A DNA stretch of 40,019 bases from a virus. Its lineage: Duplodnaviria; Heunggongvirae; Uroviricota; Caudoviricetes. Under the pieces are notes generated by a model that saw nothing but the letters and a program-made list of their open reading frames with translations, was not told where the DNA came from and did no database searches. The stretch lies in IMG/VR virus record IMGVR_UViG_2531839180_000007; one strand, 5' to 3'. The translations under genes and the position numbers were made by a program. Below, in pieces: positions 14,251-36,386 of the stretch; within the stretch, counting starts at the first letter, position 1; each line of letters starts with the position of its first letter.

Positions 14251-14811
14251 TCAGGAAGGAAGGGTTATTTCGGTGTGATGTTCGATATCGCCGTCAGGCC
14301 CGTTACCGGGATCGAGATAATCAACATCAATCGCCAGCGTTCGCAGTTCATCCAGACTGTTCAGGTCATCCTGCTGGCGGGTATCGTCTTCGGTCAGCTC
14401 GCTGATGACCGAAAAATCGAACTGATAAATCAGCTCATGACGATTCAGATCCAGCAGCGTGCCGCCGTCATAGGTAATCGGGTTACCGCACGCTTCCGGG
14501 TTCCAGCCCAGCAGAGCCTTAAAGAGCATCTGCCGGACATCGTCCACCACATCATACGAGGCAAACTGACCGCGCTCATCACGCCCGTTACTCAGTATGA
14601 CAACCACGGAGAAGCCCTCTTTCAGCTCCTGCCAGTAGTCGGTCTGGCTTTTGTTTTCTCCCGGAGAGTCATCACCCGGTACCACATACGCCGCCGGGAG
14701 TCTCAGCTTTCCGACCTCCGGCAGATTTTTGAACTGTGCCGCGCCTGCCACCCGGTTTTCAAAATACGGGCAGCGGGCACGCAGCGCAGCAATAACAGGC
14801 GTCAGTTTCAT
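14251..14811 (-). CDS. Putative neck/tail completion protein (Mu gp37-like)
   Basis: 186 aa; position between head-completion genes and the sheath. Confidence 0.4.
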   Translation of the reverse strand: MKLTPVIAALRARCPYFENRVAGAAQFKNLPEVGKLRLPAAYVVPGDDSPGENKSQTDYWQELKEGFSVVVILSNGRDERGQFASYDVVDDVRQMLFKALLGWNPEACGNPITYDGGTLLDLNRHELIYQFDFSVISELTEDDTRQQDDLNSLDELRTLAIDVDYLDPGNGPDGDIEHHTEITLPS

Positions 14812-30581: not shown

Positions 30582-31129
30582 GCGTTAGTTTCTCCACAGA
30601 CACAAAACGCCACGGCGCCCGGAGCTGCACACTCGCGGGCGTCACTCTTTTCTGGAGCGCAAAAGATTTTGTAGACCAGTGCTGCATGCTCCTGCAGCTT
30701 CGAAATTGACATGTACAGCTCGTCGTTAATTGCTGCCTGCTCGTGTGGTTCCACCACCCCGTCTTCAATTGCTGAACGAATCTGTTTTGAATAACTGCCG
30801 ATCTGTTCAATAACCTCCAACAGGCGCTGGTTGATATCGGCGTTCTCTACTTCCTCAATTTCAGGAAGTGATACAAACACCCCACCAGCAGACTGTGCGA
30901 CAGCATCCGCAATGTGGTGATTGCCAGCAGCACGCTGTAAAACCATTGCCCATCCCAACGGGAAAATCTGATCGCCATCTGCACGAAGGCGGTTGAATAA
31001 AGCGTTCTCTGTTACATCCAGCCAGTCAGCAGCTTCAGCGTAACCCCCTGGCAATGCCGCGATAGTTTTTCTGACAGCTTTCACGTACCACTCAGGTTGT
31101 TTTTCCACTTTCCAATGATGCTTACCCAC
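30578..31129 (-). CDS. Putative CII-like / YdaT-like early regulator
   Basis: 183 aa immediately downstream of the cro-like gene, the position of cII or ydaT in lambdoid and Rac-type phages. Family assignment is tentative. Confidence 0.35.
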
Positions 31130-31382
31130 GGCTTACCTCCTGTTCCTGTGGTTTAAACCCATTCTGGTTTTGGCTAGATTGAAAACGTGCCGGATAAAGA
31201 ATCTGCATTTCGCTGACTTCACCCTTAAAAAAATTGGCTAAACGTTCTGCAAGTTCGATAGATGGAATCTGCTCCAGCCTCTCAATACGACTCAACGTCG
31301 CTGGATTGACTTGAACACCCGCAGCAACATGCTGCAAAGTGAAACCATGCGCCTTACGCACATTTCGTAATGGTGATTGCAT
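31122..31382 (-). CDS. cro: Cro-like HTH (XRE-family) repressor
   Basis: 86 aa; HTH ..FTLQHVAAGVQVNPATLSRIE..; divergent from the CI-like gene. Confidence 0.7.
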   Translation of the reverse strand: MQSPLRNVRKAHGFTLQHVAAGVQVNPATLSRIERLEQIPSIELAERLANFFKGEVSEMQILYPARFQSSQNQNGFKPQEQEVSRG

Positions 31383-31396
31383 ATACCCTCCAAATA

Positions 31397-31460
31397 TTGC
31401 GCGTTATGCATGTTATTTCACGCAATTATTTTGCGCAAGTTGATTTGCTTATCACGCAAT
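31397..31460. promoter_or_regulatory. oR-like operator region with divergent promoters between cro and cI
   Basis: Three 15-bp TTGC-N7-GCAA-type sites: TTGCGCGTTATGCAT (31397..31411), TGTTATTTCACGCAA (31412..31426) and TTGCTTATCACGCAA (31446..31460). Confidence 0.45.
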
Positions 31461-31479
31461 AAAGAAATGTAATAAACGC

Positions 31480-32172
31480 ATGAACATAGGAAACCGAGTC
31501 AGACAACTTCGCCAAGCGAAGAACATGAAAATCGCCGATCTCGCTGAAGCAATAGGAGTAGATGCGGCGAACATCTCGCGCTTAGAAACGGGTAAGCAAA
31601 AACAATTTACCGAACAAACACTGAGTAATATTGCCAAGAGCTTAGGTGTTGATATTGCTGATCTCTTTACCTCTGCCCTCAAAAGTAATACTGTATATAA
31701 AAACAGTAATAATGAGGATGTTGCGCAGGTGAAGGATGTGTTCCGTATTGAAATGCTGGATATCAGTGCCAGTGCGGGAAATGGCCTTATCCAGGGCGGT
31801 GATGTCATTGATGTGATTCATGCCATCGAATACAGAACTGATAATGCTGTATCAATGTTCGGCGGACGACCAGCCAATCACATCAAAGTTATCAACGTTC
31901 GTGGGGACAGTATGTGTCCAACCATTGAGCCAGGAGATCTCATCTTCGTTGATGTCAGCATCAATCAGTTTGATGGTGATGGTATATATGTCTTTGGTTT
32001 TGATGACAAAATATACGTTAAAAGACTTCAAATGATTCCTGACAAACTGCTGGTGATTTCTGATAACCAGATTTACCGTGAATGGGGAATTACTAGCGAA
32101 AACGAACACCGATTTATGGTCTTTGGAAAGGTCTTAATCAGTCAGTCGCAAACCCTTAAGAGACATAATTAA
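31480..32172 (+). CDS. cI: CI-type prophage repressor (HTH plus S24 LexA-like autopeptidase)
   Basis: 230 aa; N-terminal HTH (..MKIADLAEAIGVDAANISRLETGKQ..); C-terminal S24 domain with an Ala-Gly cleavage site and GDSMCPT Ser and KRL Lys motifs. Confidence 0.85.
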   Translation: MNIGNRVRQLRQAKNMKIADLAEAIGVDAANISRLETGKQKQFTEQTLSNIAKSLGVDIADLFTSALKSNTVYKNSNNEDVAQVKDVFRIEMLDISASAGNGLIQGGDVIDVIHAIEYRTDNAVSMFGGRPANHIKVINVRGDSMCPTIEPGDLIFVDVSINQFDGDGIYVFGFDDKIYVKRLQMIPDKLLVISDNQIYREWGITSENEHRFMVFGKVLISQSQTLKRHN

Positions 32173-32191
32173 CCTCAATATCCCATCCATC

Positions 32192-32215
32192 GGCCACCGA
32201 AAGGTGGCTTTTTAT
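32192..32215 (+). terminator. Intrinsic terminator downstream of cI
   Basis: ggccacc-gaaa-ggtggc hairpin followed by ttttt. Confidence 0.6.
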
Positions 32216-32226
32216 TACCCACCATT

Positions 32227-32277
32227 TTGCATATTTCGCAAATATTACTTGCATATCTCGCAATTTAATTTTATCTT
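32227..32277 (+). promoter_or_regulatory. oL/pL-like operator-promoter region
   Basis: Two operator-type sites, TTGCATATTTCGCAA (32227..32241) and TTGCATATCTCGCAA (32249..32263), of the same family as the oR sites; a candidate -35 TTGCAT and -10 TATCTT overlap the second site. Confidence 0.45.
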
Positions 32278-32443
32278 TTGTTCCAGACCAACTACAGGAT
32301 TACAACAAAATCTGGTTGCAACACGGTGCACGGTGCATGTGTCGTAAGAGGTCAGTAAATGTCAAAAACGAACAGGCAGGACGCCCACGAAGTAGCCGCC
32401 GGTGGCGTATGAATGACCGGATGATTCGTTAGCAACAAAAAAA

Positions 32444-32474
32444 GCGCCCTATAGGACGCTTCGCTCTTTAACAA
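32444..32474 (+). promoter_or_regulatory. nut-like site: small hairpin followed by boxA-like CGCTCTTTAACAA
   Basis: cgctctttaacaa at 32462..32474 matches the boxA consensus as I recall it (lambda nut and rrn antiterminators); an imperfect hairpin gcgccctataggacgc lies just upstream. Confidence 0.45.
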
Positions 32475-32519
32475 TCTGGTCCCCATCAACAAGTAACTGA
32501 TAACTTGAGGAGGTGTGAA

Positions 32520-32726
32520 ATGCACAAAACAGAACCAAAAATCGTCGCGCCTGGCTACACAGATGAGGAAATTTATGAGTGGATGACAAAGAAGCTGGCA
32601 GCTATAAACCAGCTTCGTGAAGTGCTGTCTTATCGACAGGAAACAATAGACTCCTTAAAAAAACTGGATCAGGAAATCACGGTTTTATCACAGGATGTTA
32701 CTTTAGATATTGTGCAGACAAATTAG
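32520..32726 (+). CDS. Hypothetical acidic small protein (68 aa), first gene after the pL/nut-like region
   Basis: ATG at 32520 preceded by a gaggagg RBS at 6-nt spacing; sequence MHKTEPKIVAPGYTDEEIYEWMTKKLAAINQLREVL.. Confidence 0.55.
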   Translation: MHKTEPKIVAPGYTDEEIYEWMTKKLAAINQLREVLSYRQETIDSLKKLDQEITVLSQDVTLDIVQTN

Positions 32727-33132
32727 GATCCCATTCATTTTCGTCAAAATCATCAAAGTGATGAATTTGTGATCTCCAGTCTCGATAATCTAAAAATTTC
32801 TGGGCGGTTACACTTATTTTATCAAGCGTGAGTTCATCCTGAATTGAAAGAAGAAGTTCATCAAATTCCATCTCATTAATCTGTTTTGGCATCCAGTGAT
32901 GCTTCATCAGAATAAGGTGAACCAGAGCCTTTTTCCCATTCAACTGATTATAGGGTGTGCCGAATTTCTTCCGGTGCTCATTTAAGACAAGGTCCAGAAG
33001 AGTAAGTAATGTTGCCCTTGATTCAACTTTGCTTATTTCGACTGATGACACTACCCCACTGATTTCAATGCCCCGATACTTTCCAACATTTTCACAGTGG
33101 GATTTGTACAGCGTATAGATATTACCGGACAT
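32698..33132 (-). CDS. Hypothetical protein (144 aa), convergent with the early-left operon, AT-rich
   Basis: ATG at 33132 with an aagga RBS; 3' end overlaps the 68-aa gene by about 29 nt; two 18-19-bp direct repeats lie in its upstream region. Confidence 0.55.
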   Translation of the reverse strand: MSGNIYTLYKSHCENVGKYRGIEISGVVSSVEISKVESRATLLTLLDLVLNEHRKKFGTPYNQLNGKKALVHLILMKHHWMPKQINEMEFDELLLSIQDELTLDKISVTAQKFLDYRDWRSQIHHFDDFDENEWDPNLSAQYLK

Positions 33133-33416
33133 TTCTTTTCCTTTTGCGTTGTTGGGGATAACCAGATTAACCGAATCCTTGTTGTTGGGGAATAACCAGG
33201 TCCACCTCGCCTGATGTGGCTAAAAGCAGGCACATAACAGCTAAGTATTTTCAACCAGAGAGAATCCTTAGCGTTGTGGTGAATGCGGCTCAGCGCACGC
33301 GGGTTAAGGTTGAGGCTGACAGTCGACCTTCTGTGGATACCCACCCGCCTGGTGTGCAACCTTCGCCAGGCACCGGGAGGCACCCGGCACCACAACTTTA
33401 TGCTGTGTGTAGTCCT

Positions 33417-33464
33417 GGCGGTACCAGTTTGTACCCTTGCTTCCGGCTGGTACCGTCCTTTTTA
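33417..33464 (+). terminator. Terminator-like hairpin with T-run inside the GC-rich non-coding element
   Basis: ggtaccag (33420..33427) pairs with ctggtacc (33447..33454) around a 19-nt loop, followed by cttttta. Confidence 0.4.
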
Positions 33465-33552
33465 CAAAACAGAGAAGAGCATCACCGGACGACGGGCTCA
33501 TAACCCAATCCATCCGGGCGGCAGTCACCGCAGGTGTTCTTCTCTGTTTTGT
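33464..33552 (+). ncRNA. Long stem-loop (15-bp perfect stem, 59-nt loop), candidate structured RNA or cis element
   Basis: acaaaacagagaaga (33464..33478) is the exact reverse complement of tcttctctgttttgt (33538..33552). No plausible ORF covers it. Confidence 0.3.
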
Positions 33553-33600
33553 GGAGAAACTAACCGACCTTGCAGGGTCGATATGATGAGGAGCAGCAAA

Positions 33601-33963
33601 ATGGCTAGCGAACGCAGTACTGATGTGCAGGCATTTATCGGGGAGCTGGACGGCGGCGTATTTGAAACCAAAATCGGCGCAGTTCTCAGTGAAGTCGCTT
33701 CCGGTGTGATGAACACGAAAACCAAAGGTAAGGTCTCACTCAACCTGGAAATCGAACCATTTGATGAAAACCGTGTGAAAATCAAACACAAACTCTCATA
33801 TGTTCGCCCGACTAACCGCGGGAAAATTTCCGAAGAAGACACCACCGAAACGCCGATGTATGTCAATCGCGGTGGTCGCCTGACTATTCTGCAGGAAGAC
33901 CAGGGACAATTACTGACTCTTGCCGGTGAACCTGACGGAAAACTCCGCGCAGCAGGTCATTAA
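33601..33963 (+). CDS. Hypothetical early protein (about 120 aa)
   Basis: ATG at 33601 preceded by a gagga RBS; the upstream part of the longer track ORF is Pro/Arg-rich and non-coding-like. Confidence 0.5.
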   Translation: MASERSTDVQAFIGELDGGVFETKIGAVLSEVASGVMNTKTKGKVSLNLEIEPFDENRVKIKHKLSYVRPTNRGKISEEDTTETPMYVNRGGRLTILQEDQGQLLTLAGEPDGKLRAAGH

Positions 33964-34028
33964 TATCGTTCTTAATTAACCGATTATTTATCTCATCACT
34001 GAATATCTTAATATAGTGAGGACTTATT

Positions 34029-34853
34029 ATGTCTCAAAACTTAGACGCAACCGCATTTAATCAAATCCATGCCCTTATTTCTGCTCAGGGTGTTAATGAA
34101 ATTATCAGTAAGATTGGTGCCGATGCTGTGGCATTGCCTGAGAATTTCCGCATTCATGATCTGGAAAAATTTAATTTAAATCGCTTCCGTTTCCGTGGTG
34201 CGCTTTCCACTGCCAGCATCGATGACTTTACCCGTTATTCTAAAGATCTTGCAGATGAAGGCACCCGCTGCTTTATCGATGCTGATAATATGCGTGCCGT
34301 CAGTGTGCTTAACCTGGGTACTATTGATGAACCAGGTCACGCAGATAACACCGCCACTCTCAAACTGAAAAAGACAGCACCGTTCTCTGCTCTGTTGTCT
34401 GTTAATGGCGAGCGTAACTCCCAGAAATCACTGGCAGAATGGATTGAAGACTGGGCCGACTACCTTGTGGGCTTTGATGCTAATGGTGACGCCATTCAGG
34501 CAACCAAAGCGGCGGCGGCTATCCGTAAAATCACAATTGAAGCGAACCAGACCGCTGATTTTGAAGATAATGACTTCAGCGGCAAACGCTCCCTGATGGA
34601 GTCTGTCGAAGCGAAGACCAAAGACATTATGCCAGTGGCATTTGAATTTAAATGCGTTCCGTTTGAAGGCCTGAAAGAACGTCCATTTAAATTACGCCTC
34701 AGCATTATCACTGGCGATCGTCCTGTACTGGTTCTGCGCATTATTCAGCTGGAAGCGGTGCAGGAAGAAATGGCTAACGAATTTCGTGATCTGCTTGTTG
34801 AGAAATTCAAAGACAGCAAAGTAGAAACCTTTATTGGTACTTTCACCGCCTGA
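34029..34853 (+). CDS. DUF2303-like protein (YfdQ-like)
   Basis: 274 aa with a gagga RBS; resembles the CPS-53 prophage YfdQ family by recall. Confidence 0.5.
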
Positions 34854-34980
34854 TTTCATTACTGCAAATGCCCCTGCGGGGGAATTTATGGAAACATAAT
34901 TAACTCAATAATCGCCGGATGGTGAGGACTTCCTTTTACCAGAATTCAGCGCGGTGCAGCGCATATACGTGGAGAACAAA

Positions 34981-35517
34981 ATGTCATTTATTAAAACTTT
35001 TTCCGGGAAGCATTTTTATTATGACAAGATAAATCAAGACGACATCGTTATTAACGATATCGCGGTTTCCCTTTCAAATATCTGTCGCTTTGCAGGACAT
35101 CTTTCACATTTCTACAGCGTCGCCCAACATGCGGTGCTTTGCAGCCAACTGGTGCCGCAGGAATTTGCTTTTGAAGCGTTAATGCATGATGCAACAGAAG
35201 CGTATTGCCAGGACATCCCGGCGCCACTGAAACGCCTTCTTCCTGACTATAAACGGATGGAAGAAAAAATAGACGCCGTAATCCGTGAGAAATACGGGTT
35301 ACCCCCAGTTATGAGTACACCCGTGAAATATGCCGATCTCATCATGCTGGCAACTGAACGCCGCGATCTCGGGCTTGATGATGGCTCTTTCTGGCCAGTA
35401 CTGGAAGGTATCCCGGCAACAGAGATGTTCAAAGTTATTCCACTGGCACCGGGCCATGCCTACGGGATGTTTATGGAACGCTTCAACGAGTTATCGGAAT
35501 TACGCAAATGTGCATAA
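34981..35517 (+). CDS. HD-domain phosphohydrolase (YfdR-like 5'-deoxynucleotidase family)
   Basis: His in ..VAQHAVL.. and His-Asp in ..EALMHDATEAY..; ggaga RBS 5 nt before the ATG at 34981. Confidence 0.6.
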   Translation: MSFIKTFSGKHFYYDKINQDDIVINDIAVSLSNICRFAGHLSHFYSVAQHAVLCSQLVPQEFAFEALMHDATEAYCQDIPAPLKRLLPDYKRMEEKIDAVIREKYGLPPVMSTPVKYADLIMLATERRDLGLDDGSFWPVLEGIPATEMFKVIPLAPGHAYGMFMERFNELSELRKCA

Positions 35518-36386
35518 CTCATGTAGTTAGTTTTTCTGGCGGGAGAACATCCGCATATCTTGTTCACCTGATGGAAGAACAAAGAAAGGCTGGCAATAAC
35601 GTCTGCTACATCTTTATGGATACCGGTTGCGAACATCCGCTGACATACCGCTTTATCCGGGAGGTTGTGAAGTTCTGGGACATACCACTAACTGTGTTAC
35701 AGGTCGATATAAATCCTGAGCTTGGGCAGCCAAATGGTTATACAGAATGGGAGCCAACGGATATTCAGACACGAATGCCGGTGCTTAAACCGTTTATGGA
35801 CATGGTTAAAAAGTACGGCACGCCATACATCGGCGGCGCGTTCTGTACTGACAGGCTAAAACTCATCCCTTTCACGAAATACTGCGATAACCATTTCGGG
35901 CGAGGTAATTACATCACATGGCTGGGTATTCGTGCAGACGAACCCCGTAGGCTGAAACCGAAATCGGGCGTCCGGTATCTTGCCGAGCTGTCAGATTTTG
36001 ATAAGTCGGATGTTATCCGGTGGTGGCGAAAACAACCTTTTGATTTGCAAATCCCGGAGCATCTCGGGAACTGTGTTTTCTGCATCAAAAAGTCAACGCA
36101 AAAACTGGGGCTTGCATGTAAAGACGAACCAGGTCTGATGCGAGTTTTTAATGAGCTGGTTACAGGCAAACACGTCAGGGATGGTCATCGCAGAACAGGT
36201 AAAGACATTATGTACCGTGGTCACCTGACGCTTGACGGAATTGCCAGAATGTCTGCCAACAGCGACTACAGAAATTTGTATCAGGCGATGGTACAGGCCA
36301 GGCGATTCGATACCGGCTCGTGTTCAGAGTCATGTGAAATCTGGGGTGATCAATTGGAATTGGAATTCGAAGAGGTAGGGGTATGA
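35508..36386 (+). CDS. PAPS reductase-like / PP-loop ATP pyrophosphatase family protein
   Basis: N-terminal PP-loop-like motif ..VVSFSGGRTSAYL..; 292 aa; overlaps the HD gene stop. Confidence 0.6.
   Translation: MCITHVVSFSGGRTSAYLVHLMEEQRKAGNNVCYIFMDTGCEHPLTYRFIREVVKFWDIPLTVLQVDINPELGQPNGYTEWEPTDIQTRMPVLKPFMDMVKKYGTPYIGGAFCTDRLKLIPFTKYCDNHFGRGNYITWLGIRADEPRRLKPKSGVRYLAELSDFDKSDVIRWWRKQPFDLQIPEHLGNCVFCIKKSTQKLGLACKDEPGLMRVFNELVTGKHVRDGHRRTGKDIMYRGHLTLDGIARMSANSDYRNLYQAMVQARRFDTGSCSESCEIWGDQLELEFEEVGV

Follow-up and report, generated by a model that had tools for sequence, protein, structure and literature searches.

A putative two-module leader RNA with DicF-like and three-way-junction domains in the early-left region of an SfIV/SfV-like prophage

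The small RNA (sRNA) DicF of the Qin prophage is made from the DicA-repressed dicBp transcript as a 190-nt form, with a 5′ end generated by RNase III, and a 53-nt form, with a 5′ end generated by RNase E (bioRxiv 10.1101/2023.04.14.536235); an earlier report cited there, Faubladier et al. 1990, also names transcription termination in its title. Copies of a second prophage sRNA family, STnc100, are transcribed in enterohemorrhagic Escherichia coli, and one of them was confirmed by northern analysis (PMC5331693). An STnc100 copy 3′ of stx2 partly overlaps the experimentally identified Hfq-binding sRNA EcOnc27 (PMC12711010), and a relationship between this family and the PasD sRNAs, which belong to late regions, has been described (bioRxiv 10.64898/2026.05.13.724894). 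Here, we compare these systems with positions 33133-33600 of the virus record IMGVR_UViG_2531839180_000007 (Caudoviricetes), a stretch of 40,019 nt that we refer to as the window and that an initial annotation, made from the letters alone, had described at this interval as a GC-rich structured noncoding element of ~450 nt.

The window is an SfIV/SfV-like lambdoid prophage (98-99.6% identity in nucleotide comparison), and the interval itself is 98-99.6% identical to phages Kati, vB_EcoM-689R6, and SfIV. We consider it probable that positions 33202-33600, read on the + strand, are the distal untranslated leader RNA of the early-left operon and that this leader is built of two modules. Module 1 (33243-33463) couples an STnc100-like core to a DicF-like terminator, and module 2 (33464-33552) folds as a three-way junction just ahead of the first early-left gene, yfdP.

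A noncoding leader RNA upstream of yfdP

The composition and predicted folding of the region bear out its description as GC rich and structured. The GC content of 33150-33600 is 0.54-0.56 versus 0.37-0.44 in the flanks, and 33200-33600 folds as RNA at -172 kcal/mol with a z score of -6.2 (none of 100 dinucleotide shuffles folds as well). Conservation with SfV and the K-12 prophage e14 begins at 33202, so that the element as first delimited holds for 33202-33600, while its first ~70 nt (33133-33201) lie outside the conserved RNA. The leader element, or its 3′ half, is present in 2,781 of 5,426 complete E. coli genomes (about half), including K-12 with its e14 copy.

In K-12, the e14 counterpart, at 90% identity, is annotated as the protein YmfH. 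Comparative evidence indicates that 33202-33600 is noncoding, in agreement with the initial view that it holds no credible open reading frame (ORF), because Pfam and NCBIfam recognize none of the five internal ORFs, two 1-nt indels between the window and e14 interrupt the ymfH frame, the substitutions between the two are distributed 9/9/12 over the three codon positions with no third-position bias, and the Prokaryotic Genome Annotation Pipeline (PGAP) calls a "frameshifted" pseudogene here in a genome that is 100% identical across 33200-33600. The alternative, that the interval encodes a small YmfH-type protein as annotated in K-12 and several phage records, could draw on the ymfH and "hypothetical protein" coding sequences placed over homologous DNA and on a ymfH overexpression clone that, in a reported screen, set off RcaT, the toxin of retron-Sen2 (bioRxiv 10.1101/2020.06.22.160242). 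We regard it as extremely unlikely: besides the broken frame, the evenly spread substitutions, the pseudogene call, and the lack of a family model, distant homologues carry many indels yet keep the RNA helices, and three RNA 3′ ends lie in or just 5′ of the e14 leader, and the ymfH ORF contains two of these.

These transcript ends were taken from the published Term-seq supplements of Adams et al. (PMC7815308) for the 90%-identical K-12 e14 copy. One 3′ end follows the 5′ hairpin of the leader (K-12 coordinate 1201423), a second lies right after CACCACAACUUUA, 62 nt upstream of the terminator end (1201257), and the third is at the last U of the terminator tract (1201195). The annotated e14 "ymfH" (3001-3388 of our e14 locus, L129) covers the leader RNA. 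The active agent of the retron-trigger clone could be the RNA, and the "ymfH" result of that screen may need to be reread as an RNA effect. More broadly, a K-12 y-gene and "hypothetical protein" features of phages cover the leader RNA in current annotation, and Rfam gathering thresholds miss it.

The position of the RNA as an operon leader is seen in relatives in which the PL promoter and the modules adjoin. Phage mEp460 has the same operators and PL as the window and is collinear with it at 31408-32353 (90%) and 33416-34100 (98%); between these blocks, it has an unbroken noncoding stretch of ~350 nt with another STnc100-like core, and in this layout its PL reads straight into the same leader. 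Phage LLS has its operators and PL immediately 5′ of the 5′ hairpin, which matches window positions 33202-33231 at 93% and begins ~10 nt past the PL -10 element. Phage phiNP has a leader of ~880 nt, with no annotated coding sequence, between PL and a yfdP-like gene, and a Mixta prophage (L137) has the order cI, PL, module 2, yfdP, yfdQ, yfdR. Because PL adjoins the modules in these four elements, we read the window leader as a split version of a common leader, and the arrangement in the window looks like the same leader divided by inserted accessory genes. With PL directly 5′ of the same RNA modules and the first gene in all four, the early suggestion that this is the entry point of the early-left operon gains support.

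Module 1 and its relation to STnc100 and DicF

The multi-stem core of module 1 (33243-33400, + strand) matches the Rfam family STnc100 (RF02076). The match at 33243-33465 (+) is the only one in 31000-36000 (43.1 bits, E = 4.2e-7) and runs end to end through the model (positions 1-206 of 206), with the closing helix, the AGGCA hairpin, and the terminator aligned. The whole-window Rfam scan at gathering thresholds did not report STnc100, and a 61-kb multi-locus scan dropped sub-threshold matches through its stricter filters and is uninformative on this point. The closing helix of the core pairs GTTGTGGTG (33273-33281) with CACCACAAC (33388-33396), and two further hairpins are formed by TGCG/CGCA (33284-33297) and CCGGG-AGGCA-CCCGG (33373-33387).

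Relatives in other genera keep this architecture while changing its sequence. The closing helix is retained (GUUGUGGUG with CACCACAAC), the first hairpin is kept with different stems (UGCG/CGCA, GCGCA/UGCGC, and GCCCA/UGGGC), and so is the AGGCA-loop hairpin (CCGGG/CCCGG, GGUGG/CCACC, and GCCGG/CCGGC, with CCUGG/CCAGG in Qin); the central stems are replaced. The core is missing from the Mixta leader L142, the Enterobacter leader L133, the viral contig L088, and L014, and it therefore behaves as an optional module.

The 3′ part of module 1 (33401-33463, + strand) corresponds to the short form of a DicF-like RNA, a single-stranded TGCTGTGTGTAGTCC followed by an intrinsic terminator. The terminator stem pairs GGCGGTACCAG (33417-33427) with CTGGTACCGTC (33447-33457) and is followed by a C and TTTTT (33459-33463). 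The hairpin with a T run that had been noticed at 33417-33464 is thus present, and a simple terminator scan missed it only since its loop is 19 nt long. Global alignment of DicF to 33398-33463 scored 58, compared with 22 ± 5.7 for shuffled sequences, none of which (0 of 1,000) reached that score. On the e14 copy, the Rfam DicF model (RF00039) gave 28.5 bits (E = 3.4e-4; gathering score, 48), and this match fell on the terminator module.

The likeness to DicF extends beyond the terminator. As a comparison locus we used a fetched Qin-type region, ydfABC-dicF-dicB (L162). Its dicF-dicB spacer matches window positions 33275-33302 (93% over 28 nt, E = 3.5e-8) and 33371-33394 of the same core (87.5% over 24 nt), and the region 5′ of dicF matches the leader core of an Erwinia prophage (85% over 107 nt). 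In this locus, an STnc100-like core lies on either side of dicF (1290-1500 and 1565-1700), the downstream one, between dicF and dicB, being of the window type; the upstream core together with dicF is plausibly the published 190-nt DicF form. Taken on sequence and predicted fold, module 1 is best placed as a diverged, sub-threshold member of the group of prophage sRNAs that includes STnc100, PasD, and DicF. Joining STnc100, PasD, and DicF in one modular leader architecture of a repressor-controlled early operon, with STnc100-like cores and DicF-like terminators as its modules, is a modest unifying point.

The e14 3′ ends at 1201195 and 1201257 are compatible with what a DicF-type pathway would leave in making long and short forms. 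By analogy, the window would be predicted to yield a long form with its 3′ end at 33463 and a ~63-nt short form (33401-33463). The single-stranded UGCUGUGUGUAGUC of the short form is kept among many leaders but differs from that of DicF, and a pairing test of low power gave no support for the classic DicF target, ftsZ, in the case of the window. The prediction is a DicF-like short RNA with a new seed, which may have targets in the host.

Module 2 and its resemblance to initiator tRNA

Module 2 (33464-33552, + strand) had been seen as a perfect 15-bp inverted repeat around a 59-nt loop, and this repeat is present as placed (33464-33478 with 33538-33552); the inverted repeat as a whole extends to arms of 25 nt that are 84% complementary (33464-33488 and 33528-33552). 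The predicted fold is a three-way junction. P1 pairs 33464-33483 with 33533-33552; P2 (33485-33517) has an internal loop and the apical hairpin GGG-CTCATAA-CCC (33494-33506; 3-bp stem, 7-nt loop); and P3 is a hairpin (33518-33531) of variable sequence and length.

A BLAST search with 33460-33600 reached phages of Salmonella, Klebsiella, Citrobacter, and Pantoea, and an exact-pattern scan of viral contigs returned more than 120 module 2 loci. With a degenerate pattern and one genome per species, we found 25 enterobacterial loci in 14 genera (Escherichia, Shigella, Citrobacter, Enterobacter, Kosakonia, Mixta, Buttiauxella, Leclercia, Phytobacter, Pseudescherichia, Raoultella, Pseudocitrobacter, Erwinia, and Pantoea). 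Three further matches of that pattern, in contigs from Alphaproteobacteria, Pirellulales, and Cytophagales, were rejected by the covariance model as chance.

The covariation analysis that had been proposed for the interval finds compensatory changes in module 2. In an alignment of 32 sequences, 83% of cells pair, compared with 35-51% for slid partners; both-sided changes occur at ten pairs of P1 and four of P2, exceeding all shuffle controls; and P3 folds in 30 of the 32 sequences despite their differing sequences. Our covariance model (R1) finds one copy in the window, with 95.9 bits on the + strand versus 28.8 bits on the - strand. The Rfam search proposed at the same time gave a divided result, with module 1 matching STnc100 below its gathering score and no family found for module 2 of the window or of a Klebsiella phage, even at E ≤ 10. 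Searches of the literature available to us returned no account of module 2 and none of an sRNA at ymfH/xisE. On the evidence of covariation, module 2 is a conserved three-way-junction RNA that accompanies the operon leaders of many enterobacterial temperate phages, and it is not catalogued. An uncatalogued, well-supported structured RNA in 14 genera, it is the part of the leader worth experiments.

The same data bear on whether the interval acts as DNA, as a recombination site, an origin, or a protein-binding palindrome, the first two of which the initial annotation had entertained. Long inverted repeats would suit such a site, as would the mosaic junction here, with some relatives sharing the region only from 33202 and others only from 33416. 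However, pairing is kept over sequence, with G-U pairs included; the signal is carried by compensatory pair changes and is strongly strand specific (96 bits on + versus 29 bits on - for module 2); transcript ends map to the e14 copy; and the interval is far from int/attP. A DNA-level site thus has very little probability in our view.

The tip of P2, CGGGCUCAUAACCC (33493-33506; CGGGCTCATAACCC as DNA), agrees at all 14 nt with the anticodon stem-loop of E. coli tRNA-fMet, the reference sequence of which was confirmed at 100% in all 5,426 genomes. In phages of Klebsiella and Raoultella, module 2 comes after the genes for tRNA-Asn and tRNA-Arg in the late leader, spaced as a tRNA would be; these copies stand last in the tRNA array and have an acceptor-like P1 of 6 to 7 bp followed by NCCA. 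The viral contig L101 carries two copies on the same strand, an early-left copy with the loop CUCAUUA ahead of a yfdP-like gene and a copy of the tRNA-array type beside a tRNA remnant, downstream of a candidate Q-like ORF (the two copies lie at 6047-6137 and 14600-14695). The leaders of phiNP (L127, 882-900) and L101 (5738-5756) also contain hairpins with the canonical tRNA T-loop GTCYGGTTCGATTCCAGAC, at which ARAGORN found no tRNA or transfer-messenger RNA (tmRNA). These longer leaders seem to hold several tRNA-derived pieces, of which the window leader has none of its own.

We weighed whether module 2 mimics the anticodon arm of initiator tRNA, as a decoy for or recruiter of a factor that recognizes this arm, such as a VapC-like PIN toxin that cleaves tRNA-fMet, methionyl-tRNA synthetase (MetRS), or the 30S P site. 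The 14-nt identity of CGGGCTCATAACCC includes the three G-C pairs typical of initiators, conservation across genera is highest at the P2 tip and the P2 internal loop, the stems covarying, and in Klebsiella and Raoultella phages module 2 replaces the last tRNA of the array with the spacing, P1, and NCCA described above. Enteric VapC is also reported to cleave tRNA-fMet. On the other side, ARAGORN found no tRNA in the window and did not recognize module 2 as a tRNA or tmRNA there or in six related loci, its mitochondrial mode gave only spurious calls on module 2, none fitting the predicted fold, its low-threshold mode did not recognize module 2 either, and the Rfam tRNA model (RF00005) had no module 2 match at E ≤ 10. 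Of the 5 anticodon-stem pairs, only 3 survive, a T-loop is missing (matches to the T-arm motif GGTTCRANTCC in the window are at chance level only), the window copy has no CCA, the loop in e14 is UUAAUAA, and copies of type C have a G-U in the GGG/CCC stem and are equally like tRNA-Ile2. The literature searches gave no description of such an element either, and the link to a toxin or enzyme is hypothetical.

A mimic of this kind is, on balance, rather unlikely. In such a scheme, which we hold only tentatively, the mimic would be made early after induction, protecting or favoring phage development, and module 1 would stay an sRNA. There is a modest chance that module 2 represents an undescribed class of phage RNA, a compact three-way junction like a tRNA that lacks the D arm and bears an initiator anticodon tip, and a similarly limited chance that the class, carried in early-left and late operon leaders of temperate phages of Enterobacterales, acts as a mimic. 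It is doubtful, though conceivable, that it would serve as a decoy for VapC-type nucleases of tRNA-fMet or offer a handle to tRNA-processing enzymes, MetRS, or the 30S P site. If true, module 2 would be an RNA-based counterdefense or host takeover device, and the likeness to the initiator-tRNA anticodon could matter for phage-host conflict over tRNAs. Because the detectors reject it, only three of five stem pairs are kept, CCA is lacking, and the e14 loop differs, the tRNA resemblance of module 2 is a lead and not a classification.

A role in antitermination had also been suggested for this interval. Directly after a hairpin at 32437-32459 that reads as a terminator on both strands, the window has CGCTCTTTAACAA (32462-32474), which we take to resemble an rrn-type boxA; this suggests protein-mediated antitermination of the N/Nus type in the early-left operon. 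A cis-acting processive antiterminator would work differently, with module 2 or the whole leader modifying RNA polymerase for read-through in the manner of HK022 put. Module 2 has two hairpins within ~75-90 nt, as put does (PMC9378689), and sits in operon leaders downstream of regulated promoters; the early-left copy of L101 and its copy past the candidate Q-like ORF recall putL and putR; and in Klebsiella phages a strong terminator lies ~100 nt past module 2, ahead of the lysis genes. We nevertheless rate this alternative as distinctly unlikely. Comparison of 32200-33700 with the HK022 putL region, extracted via a published primer, gave only chance-level matches (blastn, word size 7). Moreover, put lacks a closing helix and precedes the first terminator, whereas module 2 has a closing helix and in most phages follows the leader terminator, and protein-based antitermination is already available, through the boxA-like sequence in the window and a gene annotated as antitermination protein Q 5′ of the Klebsiella late-leader copy. 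A put-type element is thus disfavored, while module 2 keeps some prospect of acting in antitermination.

Promoter supply, proposed mechanism, and comparison with known systems

The leader stands in a lambdoid immunity setting. The cI-type repressor is encoded at 31480-32172 (+) and cro at 31122-31382 (-), and the spacer between them (OR) holds TTGC-N7-GCAA operators. Exact copies of the same motif, TTGCATATTTCGCAA and TTGCATATCTCGCAA, form OL at 32227-32263, just past the cI terminator and outside the interval, and the likely PL promoter (TTGCAT-17-TATCTT, within 32227-32277, + strand) overlaps them. A search for this operator motif, which found the copies at OR and at 32227-32263, found none in 33133-33600. 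Past OL and PL, the + strand has a 68-amino-acid ORF, followed by a gene of the ECs1072 family on the opposite strand (32698-33132; NCBIfam NF033230).

Two direct repeats, GTTGTTGGGGA(A)TAACCAG, lie between this divergent gene and the leader (33148-33165 and 33181-33199), spaced 33 bp apart with TTAACCGAATCC between them. The same repeats stand 5′ of the leader in Enterobacter (L133), in Mixta (L142), and in the viral contigs L088 and L101, where the other upstream sequence differs from that of the window. They may serve the leader as a promoter, perhaps an unconventional one, or as a site for a regulator. The leader of this prophage could be supplied either by read-through from PL across the accessory genes or by a promoter in 33148-33199. 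The leader RNA itself opens with the 5′ hairpin CCACCTCGCCTGATGTGGCTAAAAGCAGGCAC (33202-33233, +), which is kept in e14, L014, L088, L133, and L142.

At the other end, module 2 is followed by a single-stranded GGAGAAACTAAC (33553-33564) and the hairpin CGACC-TTGCAG-GGTCG (33565-33580), both on the + strand; most early-left relatives likewise have GGAGA(A/T)A and then a hairpin of variable sequence 3′ of module 2. A ribosome-binding site had been noted before the gene at 33601, and the Shine-Dalgarno sequence GAGGAG (33588-33593, +) indeed precedes the yfdP ATG there. The yfdP start may instead be an in-frame ATGATG at 33583, although the spacing of GAGGAG suits 33601. The genes that follow are, in order, yfdP, a YfdQ/DUF2303 gene, yfdR, and a 3′-phosphoadenosine 5′-phosphosulfate reductase-like gene.

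Other RNA candidates lie outside the leader. An element of ~70 nt just past PL (32362-32434) is kept at 86-88% in the same position in phiNP, SfV, e14, and L101, the e14 copy sitting between ymfK and ymfJ. It overlaps an Arg-rich 38-amino-acid ORF with a TTG start (32316-32432), which in phiNP has no start codon in that frame, and its hairpin changes compensatorily (CGGU/ACCG versus CCGG/CCGG); we would sooner read it as an RNA site, perhaps nut-like, than as a peptide. Across the whole window, a single Rfam match exceeds its gathering score, that to naRNA4 (RF02564; 39595-39665, - strand; 71.9 bits). The early-right region of SfV (L002, 1226-1414, - strand) has C4 antisense RNA (82 bits) and isrK (64 bits), neither of which was reported by the gathering scan of the whole window, and the prophage differs from SfV there.

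Our best overall explanation, which we favor with some reserve, is that module 1 generates a DicF-like sRNA and acts as an attenuator, while module 2 is a separate part of the mRNA made by read-through. On the model of dicF and its dicB operon in Qin, most transcripts started at the repressor-controlled early-left promoter would stop at the terminator, with the end of the U tract at 33463, leaving a long RNA of ~220-260 nt, and a cut after ~33400 would release a short DicF-like RNA of ~63 nt. Base pairing would let this short form act in trans, the conserved GCUGUGUGUAGUC being a candidate for its seed. The terminator would double as an attenuator that keeps the early-left genes low unless polymerase reads through, such that only read-through or antiterminated transcripts reach module 2 and the early-left genes; there, module 2 would be a part of tRNA origin that serves in recognition or processing of the read-through mRNA. 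From the parallel with DicF, we infer that RNase E and RNase III may carry out the processing, that Hfq may be required, and that the short form may have targets; any function of module 2 is likewise conjectural. For module 1, the role of DicF-like sRNA generator and attenuator appears most likely; for module 2, the candidates are a tRNA-derived processing or stability handle and a mimic of the anticodon arm of initiator tRNA, with a cis antiterminator as a less likely third.

Several observations temper this explanation. A consensus scan found no sigma-70 promoter in 33100-33300, where only weak candidates can be picked out by eye, and the leader lies ~900 bp from PL, with a terminator-like hairpin and an opposite gene between. 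The STnc100 score of 43.1 bits stays below the gathering score of 47, SfV, SfIV, and e14 score 39.5, 38.4, and 29.2 bits, and the mEp460 leader variant has no Rfam match at all. The DicF model has no match in the window at E ≤ 1. In a test of low power, the short form was predicted to pair with the ribosome-binding region of ftsZ at -32.8 kcal/mol, a value reached by 211 of 300 shuffles (37 of 300 for DicF itself). Finally, module 2 of e14 has a different apical loop (UUAAUAA) and no P3 hairpin. In favor of the first suggestion of a structured RNA or sRNA stand the STnc100 match, the DicF homology, the covariation, and the discrete 3′ ends of the K-12 homologue.

Set beside known systems, module 2 resembles HK022 put in being a structured RNA of ~70-90 nt with two hairpins, placed in a phage operon leader and in more than one operon per genome, but nothing ties it to RNA polymerase. 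With tRNA-like RNAs, among which the P4 CI and P1 c4 RNAs, processed from precursors by RNase P, offer a comparison, module 2 shares the 14-nt tRNA-fMet anticodon identity and, in Klebsiella phages, the array position, the acceptor-like stem, and NCCA; it differs in having no D arm and no T-loop and, in the window, a P1 of 20 bp and no CCA.

Module 1, like STnc100 and PasD, is prophage encoded, and it matches the STnc100 consensus structure from end to end, through the GGUG...CACC closing helix, internal hairpins, and terminator. Its score in the window is under the gathering threshold, so a standard scan misses it, and the central stems are replaced in the window clade. The described copies of STnc100 and PasD lie in the late region near Q, stx2, and lysis genes, whereas the window clade lies in an early-left leader.

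The comparison with DicF includes differences in the 5′ single-stranded "seed" (UGCUGUGUGUAGUC in the window versus UUUCUGGUGACGU in DicF), in the terminator loop, in the order of the modules (in Qin, one core lies 5′ of dicF and a window-type core 3′ of it), and in the downstream gene, which is yfdP in the window and dicB in Qin; ftsZ pairing is unsupported in the low-power test, and the Rfam DicF threshold is not reached in the window. In both cases, an sRNA, predicted in the window, is placed within the repressor-controlled early operon of a lambdoid prophage, just past the immunity region. The GGCGGTAYCAG terminator module of DicF is homologous to window positions 33401-33463, its adjoining multi-stem domain shares sequence with 33275-33302 and 33371-33394, and the e14 3′ ends 62 nt apart are compatible with long and short forms such as the 190-nt and 53-nt forms of DicF.

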